This document shows, one piece after another, positions 9,868-39,360 of a stretch of 64,000 nt of DNA. The stretch's first letter is position 1. Each line of letters begins with the position of its first letter. Source of the DNA: Elusimicrobiota bacterium (GTDB lineage: Bacteria > Elusimicrobiota > Elusimicrobia > JACQPE01); the NCBI GenBank assembly GCA_016207685.1, contig JACQPE010000004.1, positions 1,559-65,558 of the forward strand, written 5' to 3'. The translations under genes were made by a program, and so were the position numbers. The notes under the pieces are model-generated. The model was not told the DNA's origin. It saw nothing but the letters and a program-made list of their open reading frames with translations, and ran no database searches.

Positions 9868-9877
9868 AAATAAAAAA

Positions 9878-16543: not shown

Positions 16544-16550
16544 ATTCTCA

Positions 16551-16578: not shown

Positions 16579-16583
16579 AATCC

Positions 16584-17340: not shown

Positions 17341-17471
17341 ATTAATTATCTCCTTGTTGAACCTGACAATAGCCGACGCGATCGGGCCGGGCCGTTAAAA
17401 AATTATAACACGTCGGCGGCGCGCCCTGCAGGGGTGTAGGCAAGAAGGTATTCTATTTTTATAATAAGCTC

Positions 17472-24376: not shown

Positions 24377-24390
24377 TAGCGGGGGCCCAA

Positions 24391-24415
24391 CGTCCGGCGT
24401 CCGGCGTCCGGCGTC
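24391..24415. repeat. heptamer array (CGTCCGG)x3.5
   Basis: cgtccgg cgtccgg cgtccgg cgtc, 15 nt upstream of the murD start codon. Confidence 0.9.
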
Positions 24416-24519
24416 TTAAGCCTGAAAATAAAAAATTTAATAATGAAATCAGAGAGTGTAACAATGGAAAAATGAAAATCCGAAAATCCAAACTTCCATA
24501 CTCCAAATTTTTTTGATTT

Positions 24520-24550
24520 GACTTTGGACTTTGGACTTTGGACTTTGGAC
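24520..24550. repeat. heptamer array (GACTTTG)x4.4
   Basis: gactttg gactttg gactttg gactttg gac, ending 5 nt from the mraY stop codon. Confidence 0.9.
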
Positions 24551-24554
24551 TTCT

Positions 24555-25652
24555 TCATCTCACTTTCAAACTGGCCAAAGCAATGAGGGCCAAAATAACC
24601 CCGACCACCCAAAATCGAACCACAACTTTGGGCTCGGCCGCCCCCAAAAGCTCGAAGTGGTGATGAACGGGCGACATTTTAAAAATTCTCTTGCCCTTGG
24701 TCATGCGGAAATAGCCCATCTGAATAACCACGCTCAAGGATTCGGCCAAAAAAACACCGCCGATCACGGGCAGCAAAATCTCCTGCTTGGAGACAATGGA
24801 GACGAACACCAGCAAGGACCCCAACGGCAGCGATCCTGTGTCTCCCATAAAAATTTGCGCCGGATAACTGTTGAACCATAAAAATCCTAAACCCGCGCCG
24901 ATCAAAGCGGAAAGAACGATCGTGAGTTCCCCCGCGGCCGGCACTGAAATAATGCGCAAATACTGAGAAAACCGGGCATGCCCCGCGGCATAGACGAACA
25001 CGAGCATCGCGGAGGCCGCAATCACCAAATTACCGATCGCGAGTCCATCCATGCCGTCGGTTAAATTAACGCTGTTGGAAAATCCAACGAACAAGAGCAT
25101 CACCAGGAAAAAATAAAACACATGCAAATTAAGATAAGTCTCTTTGATAAAAGGCACATTAACGCTCAAAGCGAATTGGGCATTGGGGGGATAAAGCGCC
25201 AGATAAAAAGCGAACGCCGAGGCCGCGCCGATTTGAAGCAAGAATTTAACCCTGGAGCTTACGCCTTCGGCCCTGCCCTCGCGCCTCGGCGCGTGAATTT
25301 TGAGCCAGTCATCCCAAAACCCGAGCGCTGCAAATAAAAAAAGCAGCAATTGCGCCATCAGCACATAGCGGTTATCCGGGCGCGCCCATAAAAACACCGT
25401 CAACATCATCACCGCAATAATTAAAAGTCCCCCCCCAACGGCAATTCCTGTTTTGGTTTGATGGGAATCCGGACCCCAGACTTTGGGTTTATTGACCATT
25501 CCATGAGCCAAAAGCGTTCGAATCATCCAGGGTCCCATAAACAAACACACGGCGAAGGCCGTCACGGCCGCTGCCCCGGCCCTGAAGGTGATGTAAGAAA
25601 ATACATTGAGGCCAAAATAGCTGTGGCGTAACAGAGAAAGATAATAGAGCAT
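24555..25652 (-). CDS. mraY: phospho-N-acetylmuramoyl-pentapeptide transferase
   Basis: polytopic membrane protein with MraY blocks IFMGDTGSLPLG and PVHHHFEL. Confidence 0.9.
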   Translation of the reverse strand: MLYYLSLLRHSYFGLNVFSYITFRAGAAAVTAFAVCLFMGPWMIRTLLAHGMVNKPKVWGPDSHQTKTGIAVGGGLLIIAVMMLTVFLWARPDNRYVLMAQLLLFLFAALGFWDDWLKIHAPRREGRAEGVSSRVKFLLQIGAASAFAFYLALYPPNAQFALSVNVPFIKETYLNLHVFYFFLVMLLFVGFSNSVNLTDGMDGLAIGNLVIAASAMLVFVYAAGHARFSQYLRIISVPAAGELTIVLSALIGAGLGFLWFNSYPAQIFMGDTGSLPLGSLLVFVSIVSKQEILLPVIGGVFLAESLSVVIQMGYFRMTKGKRIFKMSPVHHHFELLGAAEPKVVVRFWVVGVILALIALASLKVR

Positions 25653-25768
25653 TAAACTGTCACTGACATATAGCCTCGAAAAAAATTATTTTCCAGCCCG
25701 GACGATTCGCTCTTCGCTCTCTGGGCCGCGTTTCGCGTTTCGCCGCTTTTGGACTTTGGCCATCCTAT

Positions 25769-27220
25769 TTAAAACTCCCTTTTTAGATCACTAATCAATT
25801 CTTCAAGAGCCTCGGCCCGCGATGCCTTAAATAACACCGCTCCTGGCGGAGGATATAAAAATAGTTGCCGCTTAATAAGTTCCAATGCCTCTCCTCTCGT
25901 CGCAAAAATGACCTTGGGTCCCATTTTGCCGAATTCCTGGTTCAAGCCCATGGCCAAGCGCTCGGCCGCGAACCGGCCCGTCACCACAAAAACCACGCGT
26001 TCATTGATGAGACCGGCCCCTTTGGCTTGCCGGGCGATGCTGGCGCCTGTTTGATAATGCAGCTCCATCTCACGACTGCCCAGCTCACGCATTTCCCCCA
26101 AAACGACGATGCGCGTTCCCTCGCGGGCGCCGGCCAAAAACCCGATGACGCTATCCTCCATGGAAGCGGGATTGGCATTGTACGCGTCATTAATGGCGAC
26201 AAACTGTTCAGCTAGCGCCGGACTTAAATCAATGCGATCGCCGCGCAGGGAAACCGGAGTAAATTTTAAAAGTCCTTGCAAAATTTTCTTGACCGGAACT
26301 TTGGCGGCCAAGCCGCAGGCTGCGGCGGCAAGCGCGTTTTTCATAGGTCCCAAGGCTGTCATGGGGATCATCGCCTCGCCCAAAAATTTTTCTTGGTACA
26401 TGATCTCCAACAAGGTTCCCTTGGCGCTGCGACTCTTAATGCGCCCCTGAACATCGGCGCCGGGCTCAAAACCAAAACTTAAATAACCGCAACCAGGCCA
26501 CAACGCCGGAAGCCTGGATAGCCAGGGATCCTCTTTCCCATAAATAACCTGGCCGCCGGGTTCAAGGCCGCGTAAAATTTCGGACTTCGTCTCAAAAATA
26601 GTTTTTTCGTCGCCAAAAGTCGCCAGATGCGCCGGCGCGATGTTGGTCAAAACAACAATCTGGGGTTTGCCGGCCAAAGACAAAGGCTCAATATCGCCCT
26701 TTTTCCGCGCTCCCATTTCCCAAACTGCGAAACGATGCTTCTCGGAAAGTTCAAGAATAGACAACGGACAGCCCACTTCATTATTAAAATTACCGCGACT
26801 GCTGGTAACGGGGCCTGATTGGGAAAGAACTCCGGCAATCATTTCCCTCGTTGTTGTTTTACCGTTGCTGCCGGTGACGCCCACGACGGTGACTTGGGAA
26901 AAAAGAGCCCGGTGCGCTTGGGCCAAAGCCAATAACGCATCCAGACCGCGCCTCACTAAGATGATCGCCCCCTGGGCAGAAGCAGGGGGCCGGGGCTCGC
27001 GACTCACCAAAGCGCCCAAGGCTCCGCTGGCCAAGGCATCAGGCACAAAATCATTGCCGTCTTTATTGGCGCCTTCAATGACCCAGAAAAGTTCTCCCTT
27101 GGCGATTCGCCGGGAATCAACGGCGATTGAAGACACGGCTTGCCGTGGATCGCCTTGAAGCAACCGCCCATGGCAAGCATCCGCAATTCTTCCCAGAGTC
27201 CAATGCTTCAAGAGCTCCAT
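25769..27220 (-). CDS. murF: UDP-N-acetylmuramoyl-tripeptide--D-alanyl-D-alanine ligase
   Basis: P-loop VGVTGSNGKTTTREM and Mur-ligase C-terminal domain. Confidence 0.85.
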   Translation of the reverse strand: MELLKHWTLGRIADACHGRLLQGDPRQAVSSIAVDSRRIAKGELFWVIEGANKDGNDFVPDALASGALGALVSREPRPPASAQGAIILVRRGLDALLALAQAHRALFSQVTVVGVTGSNGKTTTREMIAGVLSQSGPVTSSRGNFNNEVGCPLSILELSEKHRFAVWEMGARKKGDIEPLSLAGKPQIVVLTNIAPAHLATFGDEKTIFETKSEILRGLEPGGQVIYGKEDPWLSRLPALWPGCGYLSFGFEPGADVQGRIKSRSAKGTLLEIMYQEKFLGEAMIPMTALGPMKNALAAAACGLAAKVPVKKILQGLLKFTPVSLRGDRIDLSPALAEQFVAINDAYNANPASMEDSVIGFLAGAREGTRIVVLGEMRELGSREMELHYQTGASIARQAKGAGLINERVVFVVTGRFAAERLAMGLNQEFGKMGPKVIFATRGEALELIKRQLFLYPPPGAVLFKASRAEALEELISDLKREF

Positions 27221-27241
27221 TGTTTTATAATTTCATCATAT

Positions 27242-28195
27242 ATGGGCGTGACTCAAGAAAGCCTGCTCTTAACAAACGCGCGCAACGTGATTCATTCTTT
27301 TGATCCGAATCTGTTGACTCAACTGCGCATTGATGCCACCGGCATCGGCCTGCGCGTTGAAAAAATTTCTAAAACCCGAGCCCCCAAAAAAGAACATCAA
27401 GCGGCCTGGCTGGAAGCGGCCATCGGCTTGATTGACCTGACGACCCTTGAAGGGTCGGACACGGATGAACGCGTGAACCGGCTCGCGCATAAGGCCGTGC
27501 GCCCATGGCGCGCGCAGCCAGCCATACACGCGGCCGCCCTATGTGTTTACGGCAATCTAGTGCCTCAAGCCAAAAAATTTCTCGATGGCTCCCCCGTTAA
27601 AATCGCGGCCGTTTCCACGAGCTTCCCTCACGGCCAAACGCCGCTCGCGATCAAAATTCAGGAAACAAAAGCTCTGGTGGCCGCGGGCGCTGATGAAATT
27701 GACATGGTCATCAGCCGCAACGCTCTCTTGCGCGGGGACCACTACAAAGTCTATGAAGAAATCGCCGAAACGCGCGAAGCCTGCGGCGACGCCCATTTGA
27801 AAGTCATCTTAGAAACAGGCGAACTCTCCGAATTCCGCCAAATTTGGATCGCAAGTGAAATCGCCATGCAAGCCGGAGCTGATTTCATTAAAACATCCAC
27901 CGGTAAAATCCAGCCGGCCGCCACCCTTGAAGCAGGGCTCATCATGCTTCAAGCCATCGATCAATTTCACCGCCGAACGGGATATAAAATTGGATTTAAA
28001 CCTGCCGGAGGCATCCGATCGGCCAAACAAGCGCTGACCTGGATGGCATTGGTCCAAGAAACGCTCGCTGATGATTGGGTTGCGCCCCGCTTATTGCGCC
28101 TTGGGGCGTCAAGCCTGCTCGATGATATTATCCGGCAACTGCATCATCTAAAAACCGGCCAATACGAAAGCTATGATTACATTCCCAAGGGATAG
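27242..28195 (+). CDS. deoC: deoxyribose-phosphate aldolase (long form)
   Basis: Schiff-base lysine region ADFIKTSTGK within a TIM-barrel aldolase-like sequence; start taken at ATG 27242 to avoid overlap with divergent murF. Confidence 0.65.
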   Translation: MGVTQESLLLTNARNVIHSFDPNLLTQLRIDATGIGLRVEKISKTRAPKKEHQAAWLEAAIGLIDLTTLEGSDTDERVNRLAHKAVRPWRAQPAIHAAALCVYGNLVPQAKKFLDGSPVKIAAVSTSFPHGQTPLAIKIQETKALVAAGADEIDMVISRNALLRGDHYKVYEEIAETREACGDAHLKVILETGELSEFRQIWIASEIAMQAGADFIKTSTGKIQPAATLEAGLIMLQAIDQFHRRTGYKIGFKPAGGIRSAKQALTWMALVQETLADDWVAPRLLRLGASSLLDDIIRQLHHLKTGQYESYDYIPKG

Positions 28196-28204
28196 GAGAT
28201 CGTC

Positions 28205-30589
28205 ATGAAAACACCCTCTGCAATAATGGCCCGCCTGGATTACGGCCCCAATCCCGAAACAACCAAAGTCCATTTTAAGCCGATTTATGATCTTTTTATT
28301 AACAATGAATGGGCGCCACCGATATCCGGAAAATACTATGACACCATCAATCCGGCCGCGGGCAAAGCGCTGGCCAAGATTGCCTGGGGCAATGAGCTTG
28401 ATATTGACCGCGCCGTCAAGGCCGCCCAAGAAGGATTTAAAACATGGAAATCTTATTCCCCCTCCGAGCGCAGCCGTCTGATCTTCGCTTTGGCCCGTAT
28501 CATCCAAGAACGCTCCCGCGAATTGGCCATTGCCGAAACGCTCAATAACGGTAAGCCCATTCGCGAATCGCGTGACATTGATATTCCATTGGCGGCGCGG
28601 CACTTTTTCTACCACGCGGGATGGGCCGACAAACTGGAATCAGCATTTGCCGATATTACGATCGCACCCCTGGGCGTTGTCGGTCAAATCATCCCTTGGA
28701 ATTTCCCCTTTCTCATGCTGGCTTGGAAAGTGGCTCCCGCATTGGCTGCCGGCAATGCCGTGATCTTAAAACCCGCGGAAACCACGCCCCTAACAGCGCT
28801 TTTATTTGCCGATATCTGCCGTGATGCAGGGCTGCCGCCAGGCACCGTTAACATCGTCACCGGGCACGGCGACACAGGCGCCGCCTTGGCCAACCACCCA
28901 GGCGTGGCCAAAATCGCTTTTACCGGTTCGACCGAAGTGGGGAAATTAATCCGCAAGGCCACGGCCGGTTCAGGCAAAAAACTGTCCCTCGAACTCGGCG
29001 GTAAATCCCCAACGATTATCTTCGAGGATGCGCCGCTCTATCAAGCCGTTGAAGGCATCGTGGACTCAATTTTCTTTAACCAAGGCCAGGTGTGCTGCGC
29101 CGGCTCCAGACTGTTGCTCGAAGAAAGCATCGCTCCCAAATTTATCGAACTTCTGAAAGACCGGATGGCCAAAATTCGCGTCGGCGACCCCATGGATAAA
29201 AATACGGATATGGGCGCCATTAACTCTCAAGATCAGCTTGATAAAATCCGCCATTACGCCAAAATCGGACAAGATGAGGGAGCCTGCTTGTGGCAAGCTC
29301 CTTGCGAGCTGCCCAAACAGGGTTTTTTCTTTCCCCCAACGATTTTTACGGAAGTTCAAACCACTCATACGATTGTTCAAGAAGAAATTTTCGGCCCGGT
29401 GCTTTCCATCCTGACATTCAGAACCGTGAACGAAGCCGTGGAACTGGCCAATAACACGCCCTATGGCCTGGCTGCGAGCGTCTGGACTAAAGATGTGTCC
29501 AAGATGGTGGCTGTATCGCGAACGCTCAAAGCGGGCACCGTCTGGGGCAATGGCACGAATAAATTCGATGCAGCCGCCGAATTCGGCGGACACAAAGAAT
29601 CCGGCTTTGGCCGCGAAGGCGGTTTGCAGGGACTATGGGAGTACTTGCAAGTTCAAAGTTCAAAGTCCGAAGTCCGAAGTCTCGATGAAATCTACCGCAA
29701 CGCCTCACCGCAACCCGCAACCCGCAACCCGCAACCCGCAACTCATGTATGGAAAACGCCGAAGATGCTCATCGGCGGCAAGCAGGTTCGCACGGAATCA
29801 GGCCGTTATTACAAAATCAACGCCGCCAACGGCCAAAAACTTCTTGCCGATGTTAATCAAGGCTCGCGTAAAGACATTAGAGATGCCGTTGAAGCGGCGC
29901 ATGCCGCTTTGCCTGGATGGTCCAAAACCACGGCCTACAATAGAGGCCAAATTCTCTACCGCATGGCCGAGATGCTTTCCTCCCGCGCCTCTGAATTCGC
30001 CCATGCCATTGCCGCCCAAACAGGGAGTTCCTGGGAAGATGCCGCAGGTGAAGTTTCCTTAACCATCCAACGCCTGCTCCACTATGCCGGCTGGTCGGAT
30101 AAATACACGGGGAGCGTCAATCCCGTGACACAAACGGACTTTAACATCACCTACCCGGAAGCCGTCGGCGTCGTCGCTTTATTCGCGCCCAACACCCGGC
30201 CCCTCTTGGGCCTCATCAGCAAATTAGCGCCCGCTTTTGCAGCCGGCAACACGAGCGTCGTCGTTGCCTCCGAGCAATTTCCCCTAAGCGCCACGGACTT
30301 TATTGAAATTTTAGACAGCTCGGACGTCCCTGCGGGCGTCATTAACATCATAACCGGATTGCATGAAGAACTCCTGCCCACTGTAGCCGAACACCGCGCC
30401 GTGGGCTTGATTGATGTTTCAGGACCCGCCGCACGGGTTAAAATAGCCGAGGAGCTTTCGATCAGCAACCTCAAACGCGTTTATCATGACCCGGAAATGC
30501 CGGATTGGACATCTCCCGAAGCCCAAGGCCGATTGTGGATGCGCCGCTACCTGGAATTTAAAACCGTCTGGATCACCAGCGGCTTTTAA
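28205..30589 (+). CDS. aldehyde dehydrogenase fused in frame to a second, truncated ALDH-like module
   Basis: module 1 complete (LSLELGGKSP, catalytic FFNQGQVCCAGSRLL, end ...GLWEYLQVQ); heptamer-encoded linker SSKSEVRS...PQPATRNPQPAT; module 2 from Met 29765 (MLIGGKQV...) has ALDH N-terminal/NAD-binding-like sequence but no catalytic Cys/Glu region. Confidence 0.7.
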   Translation: MKTPSAIMARLDYGPNPETTKVHFKPIYDLFINNEWAPPISGKYYDTINPAAGKALAKIAWGNELDIDRAVKAAQEGFKTWKSYSPSERSRLIFALARIIQERSRELAIAETLNNGKPIRESRDIDIPLAARHFFYHAGWADKLESAFADITIAPLGVVGQIIPWNFPFLMLAWKVAPALAAGNAVILKPAETTPLTALLFADICRDAGLPPGTVNIVTGHGDTGAALANHPGVAKIAFTGSTEVGKLIRKATAGSGKKLSLELGGKSPTIIFEDAPLYQAVEGIVDSIFFNQGQVCCAGSRLLLEESIAPKFIELLKDRMAKIRVGDPMDKNTDMGAINSQDQLDKIRHYAKIGQDEGACLWQAPCELPKQGFFFPPTIFTEVQTTHTIVQEEIFGPVLSILTFRTVNEAVELANNTPYGLAASVWTKDVSKMVAVSRTLKAGTVWGNGTNKFDAAAEFGGHKESGFGREGGLQGLWEYLQVQSSKSEVRSLDEIYRNASPQPATRNPQPATHVWKTPKMLIGGKQVRTESGRYYKINAANGQKLLADVNQGSRKDIRDAVEAAHAALPGWSKTTAYNRGQILYRMAEMLSSRASEFAHAIAAQTGSSWEDAAGEVSLTIQRLLHYAGWSDKYTGSVNPVTQTDFNITYPEAVGVVALFAPNTRPLLGLISKLAPAFAAGNTSVVVASEQFPLSATDFIEILDSSDVPAGVINIITGLHEELLPTVAEHRAVGLIDVSGPAARVKIAEELSISNLKRVYHDPEMPDWTSPEAQGRLWMRRYLEFKTVWITSGF
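29651..29685. repeat. heptamer array (GTYCRAA)x5 inside coding sequence
   Basis: gttcaaa gttcaaa gtccgaa gtccgaa gtctcga. Confidence 0.9.
29709..29743. repeat. heptamer array (CGCAACC)x5 inside coding sequence
   Basis: cgcaacc x4 then cgcaact; encodes PQPATRNPQPAT in the ALDH frame. Confidence 0.9.
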
Positions 30590-30612
30590 TCTCACGTAAA
30601 ATTTTCTCTTCA

Positions 30613-30652
30613 GGCGCACTCAAGACCAGGCGCCATTTTGTTTTTTGTTTTT
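30613..30652 (+). terminator. putative rho-independent terminator after the ALDH gene
   Basis: ggcgc-actcaagaccag-gcgcc stem-loop followed by a T-rich run (attttgttttttgttttt). Confidence 0.45.
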
Positions 30653-30692
30653 CTTCTCTGCCAGCCTCATGAAGAGCTAAAATGAGTCCATT

Positions 30693-31337
30693 ATGCTCCA
30701 TCCTGATTTAAAGGATATTATAACGAGCCGGTTTTTGCTGGGGGGCTTGATTATTGGATTTTTAAGCGCCACGCCCTTGGGCCCCATCGGCGTTCTGTGC
30801 ATCAATCGGACGTTAACTAAGGGCAAATCGGTCGGCGTCGCCTCCGGCTTCGGCACGGCGGCAGCCGACGCTATTTACAGTTGCGTGGCTGGATTCGGTC
30901 TGCGCCTGATAAGCGCCCTCATCAACGGCCAGCATTTCTGGTTTCGCCTGACCAGCGGCCTATTAATCTGCGGCTACGGTCTTAAAACATTCTTCGCCAA
31001 ACCGCCGCACCCTGCGGACAGACAACGCCTTAAAGGTCTTTTGAGCGCCTTCCTGTCCACATTCTTGCTAACTCTGGCCAACCCAACCATTATTATCAGC
31101 TTCATGGCCATATTTGCCGGTTTAGGGGTAGCCCATACGCACGGCAACCGCCTGCTGGCCGCAGAATTGGTGGGCGGTGTTTTCCTTGGCGCCCTTTTTT
31201 GGTGGGCGGCTTTCAACAGTTTAATCAGCGTATTCCCGGTAAAGCTCAATGACAACGGCCTCAAATGCTTTAACAAAGTCTCTGGCGTCGCGATTATCGG
31301 CCTAGGCCTTCTCGCGCAGTTCTTTTTAGAAACCTAG
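30693..31337 (+). CDS. LysE/RhtB family amino-acid exporter
   Basis: six-TM protein with N-terminus LGGLIIGFLSATPLGPIGVLCINRTLTKG typical of the LysE translocator family. Confidence 0.75.
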   Translation: MLHPDLKDIITSRFLLGGLIIGFLSATPLGPIGVLCINRTLTKGKSVGVASGFGTAAADAIYSCVAGFGLRLISALINGQHFWFRLTSGLLICGYGLKTFFAKPPHPADRQRLKGLLSAFLSTFLLTLANPTIIISFMAIFAGLGVAHTHGNRLLAAELVGGVFLGALFWWAAFNSLISVFPVKLNDNGLKCFNKVSGVAIIGLGLLAQFFLET

Positions 31338-31338
31338 C

Positions 31339-31366
31339 GGGGTCACATCTCTACATTTTACATTTT
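31339..31366. repeat. 28-nt intergenic element, copy 2 (ggggtcacatctctacattttacatttt)
   Basis: inverted copy of 16551..16578 (26/28 identical); it fills the gap between convergent LysE and HExxH genes. Confidence 0.85.
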
Positions 31367-31367
31367 G

Positions 31368-32135
31368 TCAACGATTAACGCTGACGGCTCGAATAAAATT
31401 ATCCTGGGGACTCCTGTCCTGGGTTAAACGCTCCAGGCCCAGCAGGTAATAAATTTTTGCCGCTTCCAGAGGAGCATCCCTTTCCAATTCTTCAAGAGCG
31501 CGCTCATTAAACCGGTAAGGCGAGACCGCTCGGTCAATGGTGGCGATTTGTTTCGGCGACAAAGACAAGGCCTCGCCGCCTTGGAAATCCCCCAGCGCAT
31601 CTTGACACGCGTCATAGTGGAGGTCCCGCAGGATTGCCGTTTCCCGAAGATCCCAGCCGCCCTCCAGGCAGAGGAGCCCTTGCGCCCAATGACGGCGCAA
31701 GGGCTCCTCAATGGCTGCTTCTCCCGCCAGCTCCTCGGCTTCGGCAAATCCCCCGATACCAAGTTCATGACTGAACAAATGCCACATTTCATGACGCAAT
31801 GTCCGCCATAAAAGCAGTCTCCGAATCTTCTGGTCGGCAATGAGCCGGAAATGAGGATGGATCAAAATTAAATCGCTTTCAGGATCATAGACGGCGGCGG
31901 CGCGTTCCCGGCGTTTCCCTTTAGTTTCAATCGGCTCATCGTTGTAGCGAACAAGAATGGGATTATCCTCGTCAACCACATTTTTAATCACTTGACCGAT
32001 AAAATCATCCGCCAAAATGATCCAGGTTAAATCTTCAGCTAAATAGGAATCGGGCGATTGAATCGCTTCCGGCAGGCTGGCCCATAAAAAACCTGGCGCC
32101 GCGGCCAACAGAACGACTCTCCGAAAAACCCTCAT
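31368..32135 (-). CDS. secreted protein with HExxH zinc-metallopeptidase-like motif
   Basis: signal peptide MRVFRRVVLLAAAPGFLWASL; LRHEMWHLFSHELG. Confidence 0.4.
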   Translation of the reverse strand: MRVFRRVVLLAAAPGFLWASLPEAIQSPDSYLAEDLTWIILADDFIGQVIKNVVDEDNPILVRYNDEPIETKGKRRERAAAVYDPESDLILIHPHFRLIADQKIRRLLLWRTLRHEMWHLFSHELGIGGFAEAEELAGEAAIEEPLRRHWAQGLLCLEGGWDLRETAILRDLHYDACQDALGDFQGGEALSLSPKQIATIDRAVSPYRFNERALEELERDAPLEAAKIYYLLGLERLTQDRSPQDNFIRAVSVNR

Positions 32136-32213
32136 ATAACATAGTCATATCCCTTAAAAGAGCATTTCCGCAAGGGAGCTTACCTATAAATTTTGGTGGG
32201 GGATAAAAATTTT

Positions 32214-33869
32214 TTATTTCGTTTCAAAAATGTAGACGCCGTCCCAATCAGCGTGGGGAGGCGCCTCTTGAAATCTCCGGCAGCGTTCAATATAAATTTT
32301 TGATGGAGCATCATCGGGTATATTGATAAGACACTGTTCAAAAGCCTTGAGCGCCTCGGGCCATCGGCGGTTACGATAATAAAGCACGCCGGCATCGAAA
32401 CGCTCCAGAAGCGCCTGTTGCGGCGCCGTCAAGCCGCCGCGCCTGGCTAATAACTCGTAAATTTTAATAGGCTGTTGTTTGCCTTTGACACGGACCACAT
32501 CGAGCTCCCGGCACTCGATGGCGTTTTTCGCCATAGCATAGGTGGTTTCCGAAATCGTCAGGAAGGTTCCGTAATTTTTACCCCCGGATTCAAGGCGTGA
32601 TCCTAAATTAACCGCATCACCCATGACCGTATAGCTCATGATGCCTTTGCTGCCTAAATTGCCGACCAACATCTCTCCGGAATTGACTCCGATGCGCACA
32701 TCAAGATGCGGCAGACCGCGCTTGGCCCAATCTTGATTTAAGACGCGCACGCGCTTCTGCATATCAAGACAGCAAAGCGCGGCCCTCGTCGCATGATCCG
32801 ACTGCTCCAATGGGGCACCCCAGAAGGCCATGACCAAATCGCCCTCAAACTTATCGAAAGTTCCCTTATGGTCAAGAATAATTTTGACCATATCATCAAA
32901 ATACTCATTAAGAAAAGAGACCAACTGGGTTGGTTTCATTTTTTCAGAGATGGTCGTAAATCCTGTCAAATCCGCAAAAATAACCGTCATTATGCGGACT
33001 TCACCGCCTAACCGAAGCTTGTTCGGGTCTTTCAAAACCTCATCCACAACCGAAGGGGCCACATAGCGTTTGAAAGTTTCCCTAATATGCTCACGATCGC
33101 GCAAACCCTTAATCATGTCATCAAAATGTTCTCCCAACACCGCAATCTCCCCGCGCCCGCTGGTGACGATTTTGGAATCCAAATCGCCGTGCTTGACGAT
33201 CGTCATGGCCTGCATTAAAGCGGCGATCGGACGATTAATTAAATAGGTCACCAACAAAGAAAGCGCCGCGGCCAAAACCAAAACCAAAATCGCCGTCGTC
33301 CCCACGGTCAACATCGTGCGGCGGGCCATTTGATCAATGATTTCGAGTTCCCCTGTCAACTCCTCATGTAGCGCTTTCTGAAAATTCTGAAGAGCCGCAT
33401 TAAGCTGCCGGGAGATTTCACCCAATTGAGCCAAATCGGCGGCCATGGCCCCAAAATCAGCTCCTTCAACCATATTGCGGGCGGCGCGCCCGCCGGTTTC
33501 TAGATAAGGAGGAAAAAGTTTTGATAATTCCTGGCTCGACGCCGCGCCTATAATCCCGAAGGAGAGCAGGCTTTTGAGCTTATCTTGAATTTCAATTCCC
33601 AATTGATGCGCCTTCTCCAACTTGCCGGTATTCTTGAACATAATGGCCGATGAATAAAGCTCTCCAAGATAACGGAAATCAGCATGGAGCTGCCGCCCTA
33701 GCTCATGCGCCGGATATACGGTCCCCTCCACATAGGCGGTCAATTCTCGCGTGCGCCGGCTGGATTGATACGCGACGGCAGTCGCCAAAAAAAATAGCGC
33801 CAAAAGCGCCGCGAAACTAATAAAAAGCTTATAGCGAAGCTTGAGAAAATCGGCAATTCGAGTTTTCAT
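32214..33869 (-). CDS. membrane sensor-HAMP class III adenylate/guanylate cyclase
   Basis: N-terminal TM/periplasmic segment and HAMP; cyclase homology domain MTVIFADLTGFT, KFEGDLVMAFWGAP, YTVMGDAVNLGSRLES; TPR-like C-terminal tail. Confidence 0.8.
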   Translation of the reverse strand: MKTRIADFLKLRYKLFISFAALLALFFLATAVAYQSSRRTRELTAYVEGTVYPAHELGRQLHADFRYLGELYSSAIMFKNTGKLEKAHQLGIEIQDKLKSLLSFGIIGAASSQELSKLFPPYLETGGRAARNMVEGADFGAMAADLAQLGEISRQLNAALQNFQKALHEELTGELEIIDQMARRTMLTVGTTAILVLVLAAALSLLVTYLINRPIAALMQAMTIVKHGDLDSKIVTSGRGEIAVLGEHFDDMIKGLRDREHIRETFKRYVAPSVVDEVLKDPNKLRLGGEVRIMTVIFADLTGFTTISEKMKPTQLVSFLNEYFDDMVKIILDHKGTFDKFEGDLVMAFWGAPLEQSDHATRAALCCLDMQKRVRVLNQDWAKRGLPHLDVRIGVNSGEMLVGNLGSKGIMSYTVMGDAVNLGSRLESGGKNYGTFLTISETTYAMAKNAIECRELDVVRVKGKQQPIKIYELLARRGGLTAPQQALLERFDAGVLYYRNRRWPEALKAFEQCLINIPDDAPSKIYIERCRRFQEAPPHADWDGVYIFETK

Positions 33870-33899
33870 TAACCGAGGTACCGTCTTGAGAATACTTGA

Positions 33900-34352
33900 T
33901 CACTCTTTGATAGTGATCACAAGCAGCGTCTTTAAACCGGCAATCTTCGATGCATCCGATGCCCACAGAAAACCCAGGGCATTGTGATCGGTTTGCAACG
34001 CCGCAACAAGCGCCTCGACGCCGGTTAGCGAAGAAGGCGGCGTGCCGCCATCTTGAAACACTTTTTTAATCCAATAACTCTGATAACCGTCTTCAGAAAC
34101 ACTTAAGACGGCTTTAAAAAACAATCCGCGCAAGCCTTTGGGCTCCTTAGTTTCCAGGGGCCGCAGCCGGTTCCCCTGGAGCATCACCTTCTCCCCCAAA
34201 AAAATATCCCGCGCTTCTTCTCTGGTCAGCGTTGAGGCGGGAAAACCGGGCCCGGCGACGATGGCAATTTCCTTGGACCAGAGAGAACCGCTCGCCATCA
34301 GCATGATACAAAGGACCGGTAAAAACCGCCCCATTAGAAGGAAAAGGCCCAC
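33900..34352 (-). CDS. small periplasmic PstS-like (PBP-fold fragment) protein
   Basis: signal peptide; segment TLTREEARDIFLGEKV resembles the conserved region of phosphate-binding proteins; only ~150 aa, so half a PBP fold at most. Confidence 0.35.
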   Translation of the reverse strand: MGLFLLMGRFLPVLCIMLMASGSLWSKEIAIVAGPGFPASTLTREEARDIFLGEKVMLQGNRLRPLETKEPKGLRGLFFKAVLSVSEDGYQSYWIKKVFQDGGTPPSSLTGVEALVAALQTDHNALGFLWASDASKIAGLKTLLVITIKE

Positions 34353-35461
34353 TGGAAGGCCACCTCCCGATAAATCTGTTCCCCGGCTGTGGCGCCGCCG
34401 GGCACCTCATAATAGCGGCCCTCCGCCTTAAGCGCCGAGCGCACATCCAAATTGTAGCGCACGCCGACAATATGCCGGGCATGATCTTGGGCGCTTGTGG
34501 GCAAAACTCCGGTCACAAAGTTTTGAGTCACGGAATTGCGGCGCAGGGCCATCACATAAGAACTCTCTTCCGCGGCGCGAACTTCTTCATAGCGGTAATA
34601 GGGCATAAACTTCTCCCGGAAGTTATAACCCACTTGGACAAAATAGGCCGCACTCGTTTGCGTGCCCGTAGCCTCGGAAACGCCCACGCCTTGATCGGCA
34701 ACCCTATAATACTCCGCAATAAACTCAACAGGCGCTTGCGCATGAAATAAATGCGCGCCGATGATCATTTGCCGGGTCTGCGTCAGCACGACCGAAGCCG
34801 CTGTGCGTTCCGTGATATTTGAACGATAGCCGGAAAAACCAAAACCTGAAAAGGGATGCGTCCGCGGCTTTGCGGTGACATTGAAAGAAACGGCCTTATC
34901 CGTATTGTCGTCGCCGACATTATTCGTCTGCATTCCGGACGTGGTGATCTGGGGGCCATTGCCGGCCATCAGACCGTAATGAAGCTTGAGGGGTCCTGCC
35001 GGCACCCTGCCTTCGGCCCAGAGTCCGTTAAAATGCGTCGGCAAAAACCCGCCGTCGTGTTCCCACTTCAAAAATTCCGGCCGGTCAACGCTCGTGTGCA
35101 AAATCAGTCCATGATGATAAGCTAAATTCCAGTAACCCAGCAAATTATGAAAACGCCCAACCCACAAGCGAAGCCCGTCATTAAAAAGATAGCCCGCCTG
35201 CAATCGCTCTAAATCAATACCGGCCAACCCTGTCTTATGAGGATGCACTGTGGTTTCGGCAAGGATATCAATTCGTTCATTAATACTGTCGGTCAGAAAT
35301 AAATCCACCGTTCCCTGGATAAAGCCGCCTGAATTTCCAGGTTTTGAAGACTCGACAAAATCCGCATTCCCAAATCCCCGAAACGTCAATGCGTGGCTCC
35401 GCAACGGCAAAACAACAAACGTTCCCAACATGACCGCTGCCAACTGCCATTGTTTACTCAT
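34334..35461 (-). CDS. outer-membrane beta-barrel porin-like protein
   Basis: signal peptide MSKQWQLAAVMLGTFVVLPLRSHA; alternating amphipathic strands; C-terminal aromatic end ...AFQWAFSF. Confidence 0.45.
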   Translation of the reverse strand: MSKQWQLAAVMLGTFVVLPLRSHALTFRGFGNADFVESSKPGNSGGFIQGTVDLFLTDSINERIDILAETTVHPHKTGLAGIDLERLQAGYLFNDGLRLWVGRFHNLLGYWNLAYHHGLILHTSVDRPEFLKWEHDGGFLPTHFNGLWAEGRVPAGPLKLHYGLMAGNGPQITTSGMQTNNVGDDNTDKAVSFNVTAKPRTHPFSGFGFSGYRSNITERTAASVVLTQTRQMIIGAHLFHAQAPVEFIAEYYRVADQGVGVSEATGTQTSAAYFVQVGYNFREKFMPYYRYEEVRAAEESSYVMALRRNSVTQNFVTGVLPTSAQDHARHIVGVRYNLDVRSALKAEGRYYEVPGGATAGEQIYREVAFQWAFSF

Positions 35462-35504
35462 TAGTCAACATCATAAAAAAAATAGAGGTCAGTCAACCGT
35501 TTCT

Positions 35505-37055
35505 TCACGTCTTCCATTTAGAAAGATACTTGCGGCATATCTCGCGATCATCAAAATGGACTCTTCTGTCGCGAAAAATTTGATAAGTTTCATGCCCTTT
35601 ACCGGCGACAAGCACGCAGTCTTCCGATTGCGCCTGGAAAATGGCGTATCGAATCGCTCTCCGGCGATCAACAAAATGAACGAAATTCCGGCGTCCTTCG
35701 GATTCGGGTCCTTTGATCATCATATCGATGATACGCCTAGGGTCCTCGCTGCGTGGATTATCCGAGGTAAATACGGCCAGATCAGCCAAACGGGACGCCA
35801 GGGCCCCCATGATCGGACGTTTACCCGGATCGCGATCGCCGCCGCAGCCGATCACAACAATGAGACGCCCTTTCCGGGGCAGAGCGCGCAATGCTTCGAT
35901 AACATTTTTAAGCGCTTCCGGTTTGTGCGCGTAGTCCACCAGAACCAGGGGTTGCCCATATTTTGAAATTTTCTCCAGCCTCCCGGGAACACCCTTGAGC
36001 GCAGCTATTCCACGGGCAATGGCCCGCCAAGACATTCCCAGGGACCGGCACGCCGCGGCCGCGGCCAGAGCATTGACGGCATTATAAGAACCGATCAAAG
36101 GGAGCGCTGTTTTCATTCTTTCTTTTCCAGCGGCGATCTCGCAATCCGTATGATCAAAAAAGGGACTAACTCTTTTGAGGCAAAAATCGCTCTTCTTGTT
36201 CACGCCGCCGCCAAACAACAAAGGCTTTGCTGTTTTCTCTGATAATAACTTCCGGTAAAGCTTACGGCCCCACGCATCGCCCATATTGACAAGCGCCATT
36301 TTTCCAGTCTTGGATGATTTCTTAAGAAGCCGGGTGAATAACTGCTCCTTGGCGGCAAAGTATTGCCCCATTGTTTGATGGTAATCCAAATGATCCCGGC
36401 TCAAATTCATGAACACGGCCCTATCAAAATGAAGTCCCTCGAGCCTGCCCCGATGAATCGCCTGAGAGGTCGCTTCCATGAAACAAAACCGGCATTTGGC
36501 GTAGACCATGCGCGCCAACATGGAAATAATCTCATCCGGCTGCGGTGTCGTGAGGGTCGCTGGAAAAATTCGTCCATTAATTCGGTTGCTCACGGTCCCC
36601 AAAACGCCGCACGGCCATCCCTGGGCCCTGGCGATTGCCTCCATCAGGTAACACACCGTTGTCTTGCCGCTGGTGCCCGTGACAGCTACCAATTTGATTT
36701 TTTTTGAAGGATCGTCATAAACCCAATTGGCCAACTCATGGAGCCATTCTCGCAGCCGAGGCCCTTGATAAACAGGAACGTCGCGCATCGAGGCCTCTTC
36801 ACGAAGATTCTTCATAATCTTTGGAGGCGCCGATGGCTCCACCAAAACCGCGCAGGCGCCGTCCCTAATGGCCTGCAAGGCATAACATGCGCCATGGGTT
36901 TGAGCGCCGGCCAAGGCGCAAAACACGGTGCCAGGAGCCACGCGGTTCGAATCGGAACTGACGTGGGCAATGGCACGATCAACAGGCGACTCCACAAAAG
37001 GTTGAAGCCTGTCTCCAAAATGCCTTATGAGCGCGACTAATGTTTTTTTTCTCAT
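35505..37055 (-). CDS. murE: UDP-N-acetylmuramoyl-L-alanyl-D-glutamate--2,6-diaminopimelate ligase
   Basis: P-loop VAVTGTSGKTTVCYLM; 4-nt overlap with ftsI. Confidence 0.85.
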   Translation of the reverse strand: MRKKTLVALIRHFGDRLQPFVESPVDRAIAHVSSDSNRVAPGTVFCALAGAQTHGACYALQAIRDGACAVLVEPSAPPKIMKNLREEASMRDVPVYQGPRLREWLHELANWVYDDPSKKIKLVAVTGTSGKTTVCYLMEAIARAQGWPCGVLGTVSNRINGRIFPATLTTPQPDEIISMLARMVYAKCRFCFMEATSQAIHRGRLEGLHFDRAVFMNLSRDHLDYHQTMGQYFAAKEQLFTRLLKKSSKTGKMALVNMGDAWGRKLYRKLLSEKTAKPLLFGGGVNKKSDFCLKRVSPFFDHTDCEIAAGKERMKTALPLIGSYNAVNALAAAAACRSLGMSWRAIARGIAALKGVPGRLEKISKYGQPLVLVDYAHKPEALKNVIEALRALPRKGRLIVVIGCGGDRDPGKRPIMGALASRLADLAVFTSDNPRSEDPRRIIDMMIKGPESEGRRNFVHFVDRRRAIRYAIFQAQSEDCVLVAGKGHETYQIFRDRRVHFDDREICRKYLSKWKT

Positions 37056-38800
37056 GTCGGCCCCTGATGCACAACATTGACATTTTGCGCTGACAATGCG
37101 GGCTTAAGTCCCATATTCACAATCGCTTCCTGCATTATTTTCTTAAACAATGGGGCCGCCAAGTCGCTGGCCCAGGCCACTTTAGGCTTGCGCGGATCAT
37201 CCAATATCACACAGGCGGCCAATTCCGGTTCCGGCATGGGCAAGGCGCCACAAAATGAAACGACAACATGATTTGGCGTATGGAGTCTGGTTTTCGGATC
37301 AATTTTCTGTGCCGTCCCTGTTTTTCCGGCCGTTGGATATCCGGCCATTTGAGCGGACTTGCCAGTTCCCTGTGCCACCACGCCTTCCATCAAAACCATG
37401 GCGCGCTTGGCCGCATTTTGAGGTAATGCTTGACGGACTTTCCGCGAAGAAAACGCGTAAAGCCGGCGCTCCTCGCGAAAACCCTTAATGCGATCAACAA
37501 TCTGGGGTTCAAGCAAAATGCCGCCGTTGGCCAAAGCCGCGTACGCTTGCGTTAATTGAAGCGGCGTCGTTCCGATTTCATATCCAAATGACATCATGGG
37601 CAAACTGACAGCGCTCCATCCCGCGGGCGGCCGGACAATGCCGACCGATTCTCCCGTGACGGGGAGCGCGGTTCTTGAGCCGAAACCAAACGCCCGATAG
37701 GCCTGATAAAGACCTTCCTGGCCGAGAGCCATGCCGATCTTGGCAAAACCGATATTTGAAGAATGCGCTATCACGGCGCTCAAGGGAATCAACCCATAAG
37801 GCTCATGGTCGGAAATCGTCAGGCTCGGCGTTGGATGCCAGCGCCCATTCTCGCAATCAATTTCATCTGTCTCTTGGACAACGCCGGCGTCCAATGCCGC
37901 CGCCAACACAAAAGGCTTGACAACGCTGCCCGGCTCAAAGGTATAACTCACGGCCAAATTAGGGTCCAGACTAAATCCCAATCCATCCTCAAAACCAGCT
38001 TCGGTGCGGCTCGCCATGGCCAAAAGCGCTCCCGTCCTGACATGAACGACTACGGCCACGGCGGCGCGGGCGTCCTGATGGGCCAGCGCTTCTTCCAAAT
38101 GAGCTTCCGTGCTTGATTGCAACTGAGCATCCAGCGTTAAATAAACATCAAAGGGTCCTTCGTCATGGCCGCGACTCCAGGGCCAGATCGCCATGCTCTC
38201 CGGCCGATCCTCTTCAGCAAACACCTTTCCTAAGGCATCCCGCAAAACAACACGCACCTCCTCTTTCCCTTGCAGCAGGGGATTAAGCTGCCTCTCAAGG
38301 CCGGATGTCCCCTCGCCGTCAATGCCCACGGAACCGATCAACTCCGCTGCCGTTTTCCCCCAGGGATAACGGCGCTTGGATTCAAGCTCAATTCCGATTC
38401 CCTTAATTCCCAGGCGCCTTAACGCCTCGGCCTCATCGGCAACGACCTGACGTTTGATCCAAACAAAATTCGACGATCCCCGAAGGCGGCGCATGAGGTC
38501 GCGTTGGTCAACACCTGAAATAACACGCGCGATTTGAAGCGCCAGGCGCTCGGGTGGAATATCGGTCTCTCGACGCGACACAAACAAAGACGGCATCTCG
38601 ACCGATACCCCAAGAACCCGGCCTCGCCGGTCAAGGATCCGCCCTCGCATGGGGCGGACACGCCTTGTTTGAACAACCTCGGAAGCTGTCATCTTGGCGT
38701 AAGAACCGTGCCTCACAATCTGAAGCTGGCCTAACCGGACAGCCACGGCGCCATAGAGAAAAAAAATCGCAGCCAAAGGCAGAAAGAGCCGGAAAGTCAT
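37052..38800 (-). CDS. ftsI: peptidoglycan D,D-transpeptidase FtsI (PBP3)
   Basis: SxxK (SVVKPF), KTG (AGKTGTAQK) and a dimerisation domain; start set at MTFRLFLPLAAIF (38800), because the ORF-track N-terminus MALFHFELGTWNLELGT is the translated heptamer repeat. Confidence 0.85.
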   Translation of the reverse strand: MTFRLFLPLAAIFFLYGAVAVRLGQLQIVRHGSYAKMTASEVVQTRRVRPMRGRILDRRGRVLGVSVEMPSLFVSRRETDIPPERLALQIARVISGVDQRDLMRRLRGSSNFVWIKRQVVADEAEALRRLGIKGIGIELESKRRYPWGKTAAELIGSVGIDGEGTSGLERQLNPLLQGKEEVRVVLRDALGKVFAEEDRPESMAIWPWSRGHDEGPFDVYLTLDAQLQSSTEAHLEEALAHQDARAAVAVVVHVRTGALLAMASRTEAGFEDGLGFSLDPNLAVSYTFEPGSVVKPFVLAAALDAGVVQETDEIDCENGRWHPTPSLTISDHEPYGLIPLSAVIAHSSNIGFAKIGMALGQEGLYQAYRAFGFGSRTALPVTGESVGIVRPPAGWSAVSLPMMSFGYEIGTTPLQLTQAYAALANGGILLEPQIVDRIKGFREERRLYAFSSRKVRQALPQNAAKRAMVLMEGVVAQGTGKSAQMAGYPTAGKTGTAQKIDPKTRLHTPNHVVVSFCGALPMPEPELAACVILDDPRKPKVAWASDLAAPLFKKIMQEAIVNMGLKPALSAQNVNVVHQGPT

Positions 38801-38813
38801 GGCGGACAATAGA

Positions 38814-38848
38814 GTTCCAAGTTCCAAGTTCCAAGTTCCAAGTTCAAA
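38814..38848. repeat. heptamer array (GTTCMAA)x5
   Basis: gttccaa x4 then gttcaaa, 14 nt upstream of the ftsI start. Confidence 0.9.
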
Positions 38849-38896
38849 ATGGAAAAGGGCCAAAAAAAGCAGGGCTTCTTTTCCCTCTTGACTTTT

Positions 38897-38930: not shown

Positions 38931-39203
38931 TCATGGCATCACCCGGAGCTTTTCAGCAACCGGATAATCTGTGGGCAACCGATAACCTTGTTCGCGCGCC
39001 TTGATGGCCGTGATCTTATAAAACTGAATTTGTGCCAACTTAAATTCCATTTGAGCCAATTCTAAATCAAGGCCTTGAAGTTTTTCCCTCAAGCTTGCCA
39101 CCCGGTAGCCGCTTTGAACAACAAGAGTGCGCATCCAGACAACGGTCAAAAATGATAGGGCAACCCCCGGAATAATAATTAAGACTTTGACGCCGGATTT
39201 CAC
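38931..39203 (-). CDS. ftsL: cell division protein FtsL
   Basis: 90 aa, single N-terminal TM helix (VLIIIPGVALSFLTVVW) then coiled coil; position between rsmH and ftsI. Confidence 0.5.
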   Translation of the reverse strand: MKSGVKVLIIIPGVALSFLTVVWMRTLVVQSGYRVASLREKLQGLDLELAQMEFKLAQIQFYKITAIKAREQGYRLPTDYPVAEKLRVMP

Positions 39204-39250
39204 TCGCGCCGCCTTGAAAAACCAAAAGAATGCCGAATGCCGGAATCTAA

Positions 39251-39360
39251 AACGTCGAATTTCGAACGTCGAATTAAGGAACAGGGAAAATTTTGAATTT
39301 TAAATTTTGAATTTTGAATTAAGGAATTCATTTTATTTGTCATTTGAGATTCGTCATTCG
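39251..39360. repeat. compound short-tandem-repeat region: (CGTCGAA/TTTCGAA)x3, (AATTTTR)x4, (GTCATTY)x2
   Basis: aacgtcgaatttcgaacgtcgaatt ... ttttgaattttaaattttgaattttgaatt ... gtcatttgagattcgtcattcg; related to 51470..51506. Confidence 0.85.

Follow-up and report, generated by a model that had tools for sequence, protein, structure and literature searches.

Within the window, by which we mean the whole 64,000-nucleotide stretch that was analyzed, the genes of the dcw cluster, whose arrangement ranks among the best conserved in bacteria, lie on the minus strand in two separate units. The source is a MAG of uncultured Elusimicrobia from groundwater (NCBI locus tags HY547_...). The proximal unit is headed by rsmH/mraW (39354..40253, minus strand), which matched Pfam Methyltransf_5 with an E-value of 7e-74, and continues through a candidate ftsL (38931..39203, minus strand) and ftsI (37052..38863, minus strand; a class B PBP with Pfam PBP_dimer and Transpeptidase matches) to its final dcw gene, murE (35505..37055, minus strand). 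The ftsL candidate encodes 90 residues with one TM helix and a coiled coil; it gave no Pfam match above cut-off and was named from its position between rsmH and ftsI, and it had a tblastn match in a related locus, L001 (7886-8113, E = 3e-13). The real start of ftsI probably lies downstream of a heptamer array at 38813-38845. The distal unit (21873..27220, minus strand), recognized by Pfam and NCBIfam, consists of murF (25769..27220), mraY (24555..25652), murD (22991..24376), and ftsW (21873..22994), all on the minus strand, and the same run was found in three related loci (L081, L082, and L083). Both MurE (NF001124, 479.6 against a cut-off of 476; TIGR01085, 470.3 against 257.3) and MurF (TIGR01143, 318.8 against 288.6) scored above NCBIfam cut-offs, and the statement of an earlier, sequence-only reading of this DNA that the two genes stand apart with a mixed-strand block between them was borne out: the gap is 8,284 bp and holds seven genes on both strands. 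Contiguity of ftsL-ftsI-murE-murF-mraY-murD-ftsW is broken in the window; order and strand are retained, as are the 4-bp overlaps at ftsI-murE and murD-ftsW, and the internal spacers of the distal unit measure 116-178 bp and contain heptamer arrays.

Both ends of the cluster are also unusual. The slot expected for mraZ, a 470-bp interval upstream of rsmH, is filled by the RNase P RNA gene rnpB (40275..40665, plus strand; Rfam RF00010, 176 bits, gathering score 100), and in L001 rnpB likewise lies between rnh and rsmH, on the opposite strand. We found no Pfam match to MraZ in the window, and none of its 49 ORFs (the longest per position) matched MurG, MurC, Ddl, FtsQ, FtsA, or FtsZ; tblastn searches of the window with the MurG and MraZ proteins of two more distant Elusimicrobia (L091 and L092) were likewise negative, the best E-value being 0.05. 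On the 3' side of ftsW, Pfam identified a Wzy_C protein and PPDK rather than murG-murC-(murB)-ddl-ftsQ-ftsA-ftsZ. The earlier reading had stated that mraZ is missing from the cluster, that murG, murC, ddl, and ftsQAZ are absent from the window, and that the cluster ends at ftsW and is followed by an O-antigen-ligase-like protein and ppdK, and it was right on all of these. Neither mraZ nor murG was detected in the window or in any locus of the clade to which it belongs, and the loss of mraZ and the halt after ftsW are clade traits as far as this locus is concerned. We infer that the absent dcw genes are located elsewhere in the genome; a clade that had dispensed with murG or ftsZ entirely is unlikely.

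The plus strand of the block between murE and murF (27221-35504) carries, as had been proposed, deoC, an ALDH fusion, and a LysE-family exporter. The first of these (27242..28195, plus strand), which is divergent from murF, encodes a deoxyribose-phosphate aldolase that scored 175.3 bits on the equivalog TIGR00126 (cut-off 117.3). For this gene the ATG at 27242 is a likelier start codon than the listed TTG at 27140. The ALDH fusion (28205..30589, plus strand; 794 aa; Pfam Aldedh, E = 2e-209) has a full domain at residues 40-485, then a linker encoded by heptamer arrays at 29649-29742, and then a second, half-ALDH domain, the C-terminal 309 residues corresponding to positions 5-232 of the 461 in the Aldedh profile. 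Both genes recur in relatives: DeoC shares 68-70% identity with its counterparts in L082, L087, and L090, head-to-head with murF in all of them, and the fusion shares 69-71% with those of L082 and L087 over the entire protein; this pair (68-71% identity) is better conserved than MurE and MurF (45-52%). The pair would probably convert deoxyribose-5-phosphate to glyceraldehyde-3-phosphate and acetaldehyde, and the acetaldehyde to acetate. The exporter (30693..31337, plus strand; Pfam LysE) was not present in L087 or L082, where another gene directly follows ALDH.

Convergent with the exporter is a gene (31368..32135, minus strand) for an orphan 255-aa HExxH protein with a signal-peptide-like N-terminus. 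The HExxH motif seen in the earlier reading is present, in the form HEMWH, and no family could be assigned: this protein, the 150-aa protein, and the porin described below had no NCBIfam match and no Pfam match even under lenient settings (E up to 1). An exhaustive search of 1.84 billion proteins found three representatives, namely the protein itself and two others, a word-index search returned only the protein itself, and a single-sequence AlphaFold model was unusable (pLDDT 36.7). In L087 the gene next after murE is a homolog (E = 5e-28). In addition, the segment directly upstream of it (32136..32213, minus strand), which marks the inner edge of the cassette described next, aligned to DNA directly 3' of murE in L087 with a score of 43 that none of 2000 shuffles reached; these ~80 bp thus precede the HExxH gene in both genomes, after the cyclase gene in the window and after murE in L087. 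A strict 43-bp comparison of the spacers of L087 and the window was not significant, whereas the extended 85-bp comparison was. The HExxH gene, shared with L087, belongs to the older core of the block.

Between this segment and murE lies a three-gene cassette with a 43-bp leader (32214..35504, minus strand). Next to murE is a gene for a 375-aa protein (34334..35461, minus strand), for which an AlphaFold model from 17 sequences gave a 16-strand barrel (pLDDT 84, pTM 0.81); the best Foldseek matches in the PDB were chitoporin, OmpT, OmpC, OmpF, and OprP, with E-values from 6.6e-13 to ~2e-11 and TM scores of ~0.6. The predicted structure is that of a beta-barrel porin, in agreement with the original label. 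The last gene (32214..33869, minus strand), also correctly recognized from sequence as a HAMP adenylate cyclase, encodes by its Pfam domains a HAMP-class III cyclase-TPR protein. The label that fell was that of a PstS-like fragment for the middle gene (33900..34352, minus strand). Its product is a full-length 150-aa secreted protein conserved in the cassette, without a match in Pfam, NCBIfam, or the PDB, and the PstS-like assignment was rejected since a PDB sequence search gave only noise with E-values of ~1. The same trio, in identical order and with identical sizes, occurs with unrelated flanks in L093 and L094, and one cassette-bearing contig elsewhere has a GC content of 38%; the cassette is a portable unit, and it may carry its own promoter. 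It was not found in L087 between murE and the HExxH gene, and the junction of murE with the porin gene was seen in one MAG contig only. Together with LysE the cassette would represent genome-specific additions, but strictly a deletion in L087 fits too.

Other features at the locus concern its spacers. LysE and the HExxH gene converge on a 30-bp spacer that contains a 28-nt element (31339..31366, plus strand); the sole other copy in the window is inverted (16551-16578, minus strand) in the interval between ftsW and comM, zero copies are expected by chance, and the element was absent from all fetched loci. The element had been described as bounding the block, but it sits inside it, and the junctions, described as heptamer-rich, have no heptamer arrays at either edge (27221-27241 and 35462-35504), the arrays lying in other spacers. 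The inverted pair was considered as the end-points of an inversion of 16579-31338 and rejected, as relatives without the element share the relative orientation of murF and murE. At the other end of the block the ATG codons of murF and deoC are separated by a head-to-head spacer of 21 bp (27221..27241) with a TATAAT at 27226-27231. Consensus scans of 21.5-40.8 kb found promoters (23 sites versus 15.1 +/- 3.9 in shuffled sequence) and terminators (42 versus 33.1 +/- 5.5) not above expectation, and the promoter scan listed neither this TATAAT nor the TTGACT-15-TATGAT before the porin gene. We would place the promoter of the distal unit within or adjoining the 21-bp spacer, and murE may be co-transcribed with the passenger genes downstream of it.

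The synteny comparison proposed in the earlier reading bears on the age of the break. Among loci from other phyla fetched via MurE, at least 65 of the 79 had a murF match starting 3-802 bp after murE, so the separation in the window is a true departure from the norm. The outgroup of more distant Elusimicrobia (L091 and L092) has the canonical order mraZ-rsmH-ftsL-ftsI-murE-murF-mraY-murD-ftsW-murG. All fetched relatives within the clade (MurF 41-52% identical) lacked murE-murF adjacency, mraZ, and murG at the locus. The gap in L087 is 4.2 kb and reads murE, HExxH homolog, ALDH(-), DeoC(-), murF; in L082, L084, and L085, which are one species from three datasets, it is 7.2 kb and reads murE, PhoX, SPOUT, AAA_14, a hypothetical gene, ALDH(-), DeoC(-), murF. 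In L083 murE and murF are separated by 8 kb of unrelated genes, in L001 and L086 (one MAG) they are on different contigs, and in L081, L088, and L090 murF has no murE directly upstream. At the same site, relatives have deoC-ALDH and the HExxH gene, and lack the cassette and LysE. A metagenome scan with MurF found only two loci, both of the L082 species, and added no lineage, and a search for identical copies of the window's MurE gave no entry. The collections searched held no relative closer than ~52-56% MurF identity, and for this reason the gains of the cassette and LysE are undatable.

The junction of deoC and murF could be aligned across the spacer among four lineages (the window, L087, L082, and L090), the distance between the two start codons being ~20-50 bp. 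In a neighbor-joining analysis of MurF, with support counted as explicit bipartitions, the clade was separated from the outgroup with 100% bootstrap support, and subclades B and A received 98.5% and 63.5%, respectively; this replaced a Biopython bootstrap consensus of concatenated MurF and MraY, which was incoherent and poorly supported. Taxa with the junction fall in both subclades, and the alignment points to a single origin; since the subclade A members L081, L086, and L088 have no deoC beside murF, secondary losses must be assumed. A second variable slot is located between ftsW and comM (15902..21779; DUF480, methyltransferase, PPDK, and Wzy_C membrane protein genes by Pfam). This interval is 6 kb in the window and empty in L082, where ftsW adjoins comM-lysM-dprA-topA, and it behaves like the murE/murF slot. 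In L082 an AbiE insertion also separates mraY from murD.

We propose the following history. The ancestral dcw cluster would have split long ago in this clade into two co-oriented units, the proximal rsmH-ftsL-ftsI-murE and the distal murF-mraY-murD-ftsW, and the clade would have lost mraZ, the slot of which is now occupied by rnpB, and murG at the same locus. The oldest recoverable filling of the break would be the deoC-ALDH operon placed head-to-head against murF; in one subclade the orphan HExxH gene would also read on from murE. The broken interval may have served since as a permissive slot for gene gain and loss between two dcw transcription units: the window genome would have gained the signaling cassette of porin, small periplasmic protein, and HAMP-cyclase right after murE and the LysE exporter at the convergent junction, whereas the slot in other relatives contains PhoX, SPOUT, and AAA_14 genes, or genes of quite another kind. 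The shared break, the homologous deoC/murF junction, the portable cassette, and the native composition (below) are established by the comparisons; as an explanation of the whole, we hold an old clade-wide break with later turnover in the slot to be correct with considerable confidence.

A different reading would tie the block to envelope growth, with the deoC/murF spacer as a selected, shared bidirectional control region and the genes after murE (porin, cyclase, and the HExxH protein, taken as peptidase-like) as envelope functions co-expressed with the proximal unit; the breakdown of deoxynucleosides would in this way be linked to late peptidoglycan-precursor synthesis. The junction has indeed been kept in four lineages despite turnover elsewhere in the slot, and DeoC and ALDH show stronger conservation than the Mur ligases. 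The spacer leaves too little room for two independent promoters and contains a TATAAT, and the genes after murE are co-oriented, with short spacers and envelope or secreted products. However, neutral inheritance also predicts that a tight junction will be retained, and three members of the clade have other genes before murF, indicating that the linkage is dispensable. No biochemical link is known between the Mur pathway and either DeoC or ALDH, and the cassette occurs away from murE, possibly under its own promoter. We consider a functional tie improbable, if the best of the alternatives, and slightly more doubtful still is the specific idea that selection maintains the junction as a bidirectional control region, possibly a leaderless one, which would tie the late peptidoglycan-precursor operon to the catabolism of deoxyribose and nucleosides and so supply replacement regulatory logic for the split dcw cluster in a clade without the MraZ regulator.

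A single recent, horizontally acquired island of 8.3 kb might be suspected from the mixed strands and heterogeneous gene set, from the occurrence of the cassette in unrelated contexts, including the 38% GC contig, and from the repeated element inside the block. The composition check that had been suggested for 27221..35504 found the block indistinguishable from its flanks, with GC 0.527 in both and a flat profile, GC3 of 0.580 versus 0.575, no difference in codon-usage distance (p = 0.32), and a tetranucleotide correlation of 0.9685, where sliding windows as large as the block had a median of 0.971. There was no integrase, tRNA target, or flanking repeat at the block edges and no repeat pair at 27221 or 35504; the window has a single integrase-like gene, of XerC type (8929-9867), and its tRNAs lie near 60 kb, all of them far from the block. 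The deoC-ALDH pair and the HExxH gene, which make up half of the block, occupy the same place in relatives at 45-52% MurF identity, with a junction that can be aligned, and relatives without the block genes also lack murE-murF adjacency, which leaves the island very hard to defend. Equally implausible is an assembly or binning artefact in a chimeric MAG contig: the source is metagenome-assembled, the murE-porin junction is unique to the contig, and the heptamer arrays and 28-nt element are repeats able to mislead assemblers, but the deoC/murF junction and the murE-murF gap recur in independent NCBI, ENA, JGI, and Logan assemblies, composition is uniform over both edges, which are repeat-free, and the backbone order on either side agrees with L001, L081, and L082.

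We return, then, to the old break with later turnover. The earlier reading had left the choice between a lineage-specific dcw architecture and a historical insertion. The former is supported, the break being common to the clade and the outgroup canonical. A single insertion of ~8.5 kb is not supported, the block being a mosaic; an insertion rather than a stable lineage trait is largely contradicted by the sharing of the break among relatives and by composition that matches the flanks.

Usually murE and murF are adjacent and in some cases even fused, and this has served as an argument that gene order mirrors how a Mur enzyme complex is assembled (PMC10214165). The window resembles the canonical cluster in the order and orientation of rsmH-ftsL-ftsI-murE ... 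murF-mraY-murD-ftsW, and differs from it in having rnpB in place of mraZ, the 8.3-kb mixed-strand gap, and no murG, murC, ddl, or ftsQAZ after ftsW. Fragmented clusters are known: in Cyanobacteria the genes are dispersed, in non-rod and Gram-positive species the mur genes are rearranged, and ftsA/ftsZ are missing from Chlamydiae and Planctomycetes (PMC8871954; PMC10214165). With these the present clade shares a vertical, clade-level loss of contiguity and of members, the remaining sub-clusters being intact, although here the break falls at murE/murF and is marked by the conserved deoC-ALDH wedge. As in genomic islands and integration hot spots, the cargo varies among relatives and includes at least one portable multi-gene cassette, but the block in the window is free of integrases, tRNA targets, and flanking repeats, does not stand out in composition, and is in part ancient, native content. 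The window adds another lineage-specific broken dcw cluster to those known, not a recent insertion. Understanding of the pathway is unchanged by it, and its practical use lies mainly in the annotation and phylogenomics of these MAGs, where the deoC-ALDH/murF junction together with rnpB/rsmH provides a synteny marker for the clade. The clade has been stable with murE and murF separated and with neither mraZ nor murG at the locus, and adds another natural counter-example, in which the adjacency of the two genes is dispensable.

An ORF map combined with Pfam and NCBIfam scans placed the dcw genes of the window in two co-oriented runs on the minus strand: a proximal unit comprising rsmH (39354-40253), a candidate ftsL encoding 90 residues (38931-39203), ftsI (37052-38863) and murE (35505-37055), and a distal unit comprising murF (25769-27220), mraY (24555-25652), murD (22991-24376) and ftsW (21873-22994), with MurE and MurF both scoring above curated NCBIfam cut-offs. 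The two units are parted by 8,284 bp (27221-35504) containing seven genes, an opposed operon among them, which bore out the mixed-strand block that a sequence-only reading had placed between murE and murF. That reading had also described the cluster as lacking mraZ and murG-ftsZ, and within the window this held: Pfam scans of 49 ORFs (the longest per position) found no murG, murC, ddl, ftsQ, ftsA, ftsZ or mraZ; tblastn queries taken from relatives with canonical clusters, MurG and MraZ, were likewise negative. Downstream of ftsW we saw genes for a Wzy_C protein and then PPDK. The 470-bp slot upstream of rsmH holds the RNase P RNA gene rnpB (40275-40665, plus strand), flanked by rnhA and rsmH and reading against the dcw genes, at the canonical site of mraZ; the slot is filled in the same way (rnpB at 6585-6965, minus strand) in L001, the nearest GTDB relative.

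The separation of murE from murF is unusual. In at least 65 of 79 loci of other phyla fetched through MurE, the murF match begins 3-802 bp past murE, and two more distant Elusimicrobia (L091 and L092) have the textbook order mraZ-rsmH-ftsL-ftsI-murE-murF-mraY-murD-ftsW-murG. Searches of genome, metagenome and protein collections found the nearest relatives to be ~50% identical in MurE and MurF, all labelled Elusimicrobia. Every relative fetched from the window's own groundwater clade lacks murE-murF adjacency, no mraZ was found in any fetched clade locus, and in all of them the distal run ends at ftsW, without murG; these shared absences support a lineage-specific dcw architecture, one of two options left by the sequence-only reading. 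Synteny showed the break to be common to the clade relatives and the content of the block to differ among them. From murE to murF, L087 has an HExxH homologue directly after murE (E = 5e-28), then ALDH and DeoC genes on the minus strand (4.2 kb in all), and L082, L084 and L085 (one species from three datasets) have PhoX, SPOUT, AAA_14, a hypothetical gene, and again minus-strand ALDH and DeoC genes (7.2 kb). In L083 unrelated genes fill 8 kb, and in L001 and L086, which come from one MAG, murE and murF are on separate contigs with a class A PBP gene before murF; the gene before murF is an aminotransferase in L081, a PIN gene in L088 and deoC in L090.

The other option, one insertion of ~8.5 kb, gives way to an old wedge with later additions, and the block itself was indistinguishable in composition from its flanks by every measure run: GC (0.527 in both), GC3 (0.580 vs 0.575), codon-usage distance (p = 0.32), tetranucleotide content (correlation of 0.9685 with the whole window, where sliding windows of equal size have a median of 0.971) and a flat GC profile. 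No integrase, tRNA or flanking repeats were found at the block edges, neither edge carries the heptamer arrays said to bound it, and the 28-nt element proposed as a boundary sits inside the block, in the convergent spacer between the LysE and HExxH genes.

The wedge is a deoC-ALDH pair lying head-to-head with murF. The window, L087, L082 and L090 all have this deoC|murF junction, which aligns through the spacer. Every replicate (100%) of a neighbour-joining bootstrap of MurF separated the clade from the canonical outgroup, and deoC-bearing taxa fell in both subclades (B with 98.5% and A with 63.5% support). Among wedge-bearing genomes DeoC and ALDH are 69-71% identical, vs 45-52% for MurE and MurF. 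The simplest reading of these comparisons is a single ancient event followed by vertical inheritance, with the wedge lost later in L081, L086 and L088. The deoC product passes the TIGR00126 equivalog, and the gene most probably starts at ATG 27242, with 21 bp between it and the murF ATG. In the ALDH (28205-30589, 794 residues) a full ALDH domain is joined through a linker to a second half-ALDH domain, a fusion kept in L082 and L087 (775-796 residues); its linker is coded by three heptamer arrays (29649-29742; AAGTTCA, AAGTCCG and CCGCAAC x5) and resembles an intergenic spacer turned coding upon fusion of two ORFs. Judging from family annotations, the pair could plausibly catabolize deoxyribose-5-phosphate: DeoC would yield glyceraldehyde-3-phosphate and acetaldehyde, which ALDH would oxidize to acetate.

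Besides a plus-strand LysE gene, the remainder of the interval encodes, on the minus strand, a 255-residue HEMWH protein, a HAMP-class III cyclase-TPR protein, a 150-residue secreted protein and a 375-residue protein. The 150-residue protein had been labelled a PstS-like fragment, for which Pfam, NCBIfam and PDB searches gave no support. By predicted structure (pLDDT 84) the 375-residue protein is a porin, with Foldseek matches to OmpC, OmpF and chitoporin (E ~1e-12). The HEMWH (HExxH) protein (31368-32135), possibly a secreted metallopeptidase, begins with a signal-peptide-like stretch; its orphan family is represented just 3 times among 1.84 billion cluster representatives, and its structure prediction was unusable (pLDDT 36.7). 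The other three genes form a ~3.3-kb minus-strand cassette (32214-35504): a 16-strand porin from a very small family (18 homologues among 5.8 billion proteins), a 145-150-residue secreted protein without a family, and the HAMP-class III nucleotide cyclase with a TPR tail. Cassettes with the same gene order and sizes (35-61% identity) occur among unrelated neighbours in two further loci, L093 (1526-4756, 53% GC) and L094 (338-3623, 38% GC), neither adjoining murE, and the cassette has the look of a trans-envelope signalling module whose genes travel together. Since a ~80-bp segment upstream of the HExxH gene follows the cyclase gene in the window and directly follows murE in L087 (alignment score 43, reached by 0 of 2000 shuffles), the cassette sits exactly between murE and this segment. 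Its 43-bp leader contains TTGACT-15 nt-TATGAT, so it may bring its own promoter. Where the window has LysE and the 28-nt element, L087 has only the convergence of its HExxH and ALDH genes; LysE and the element are probably later additions, although with relatives this distant they may instead have been lost in L087. The element, GGGGTCACATCT[C/A][T/C]ACATTTTACATTTT, has two inverted copies (16551-16578, minus; 31339-31366, plus), each filling a 30-40-bp convergent-gene spacer, one per variable slot, and was absent from all 94 fetched loci.

Variable content is confined to a few fixed junctions of a backbone (ntp, CT398-like, rnhA, rnpB, rsmH ... murE // murF ... ftsW // comM, lysM, dprA, topA) common to the window, L001, L081 and L082. 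The second slot, ftsW|comM (15902-21779, ~6 kb), holds DUF480, methyltransferase, PPDK and Wzy_C membrane protein genes, the last two convergent with a 12-bp overlap, and is empty in L082, where ftsW directly adjoins comM. A toxin-antitoxin pair (AbiEi/AbiEii) sits between mraY and murD in L082, L084 and L085, in L082 together with a small ORF (12514-15149), a further break within the distal unit; the mraY|murD spacer of the window measures 178 bp and contains heptamer arrays. Such tandem arrays use many different units and are found mainly in the window's intergenic spacers (5157-5257, 9934-9960, 14201-14226, 24391-24415, 24520-24552, 25706-25743, 29649-29742, 38813-38845, 38891-38923 and 39228-39320). 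Period 7 gave four perfect arrays of at least three copies, vs 0-1 for other periods from 4 to 12, and some arrays form inverted pairs (38813-38843 with 38891-38921; 9872-9895 with 9940-9963). Clade relatives L001, L081, L083 and L087 have one array apiece, and the other eight loci checked (L082, also of the clade, the outlying Elusimicrobia L091 and L092, L093, L094 and three of other phyla) have none. Separately, 61092-61267 (minus) matches Rfam group-II-D1D4-6 (62 bits, gathering score 49) near tRNA-Ser (60766-60853) and an ORF (61322-61831); no reverse-transcriptase ORF was detected nearby, and the match may mark a group II intron that is degraded or lacks an ORF.

With an opposed operon between the units, no single transcript can span murE to murF. 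The promoter of the distal unit would lie within the 21-bp deoC|murF spacer or overlap it; the spacer holds TATAAT on the deoC strand (27226-27231), making short or leaderless transcripts plausible. murE may share a transcript with downstream passenger genes, and the missing dcw genes would be at other loci of the genome. Consensus scans for promoters and terminators gave no useful signal.

Conservation of the dcw cluster across Bacteria was reportedly surveyed by Megrian et al. 2022 (Nat Microbiol). We found no paper describing the arrangement in Elusimicrobia, the sole match to 'dcw cluster' and 'Elusimicrobia' concerning murA sub-clusters. Fragmentation and member loss are documented in several lineages, with conservation highest in rod-shaped Gram-negatives (PMC8871954, PMC10214165), and the cluster in the window is one more of this known class of rearranged dcw clusters. 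Arguments for a Mur complex have drawn on the adjacency and fusion of MurE and MurF (PMC10214165), and the clade provides a further natural example in which this pair is unlinked.
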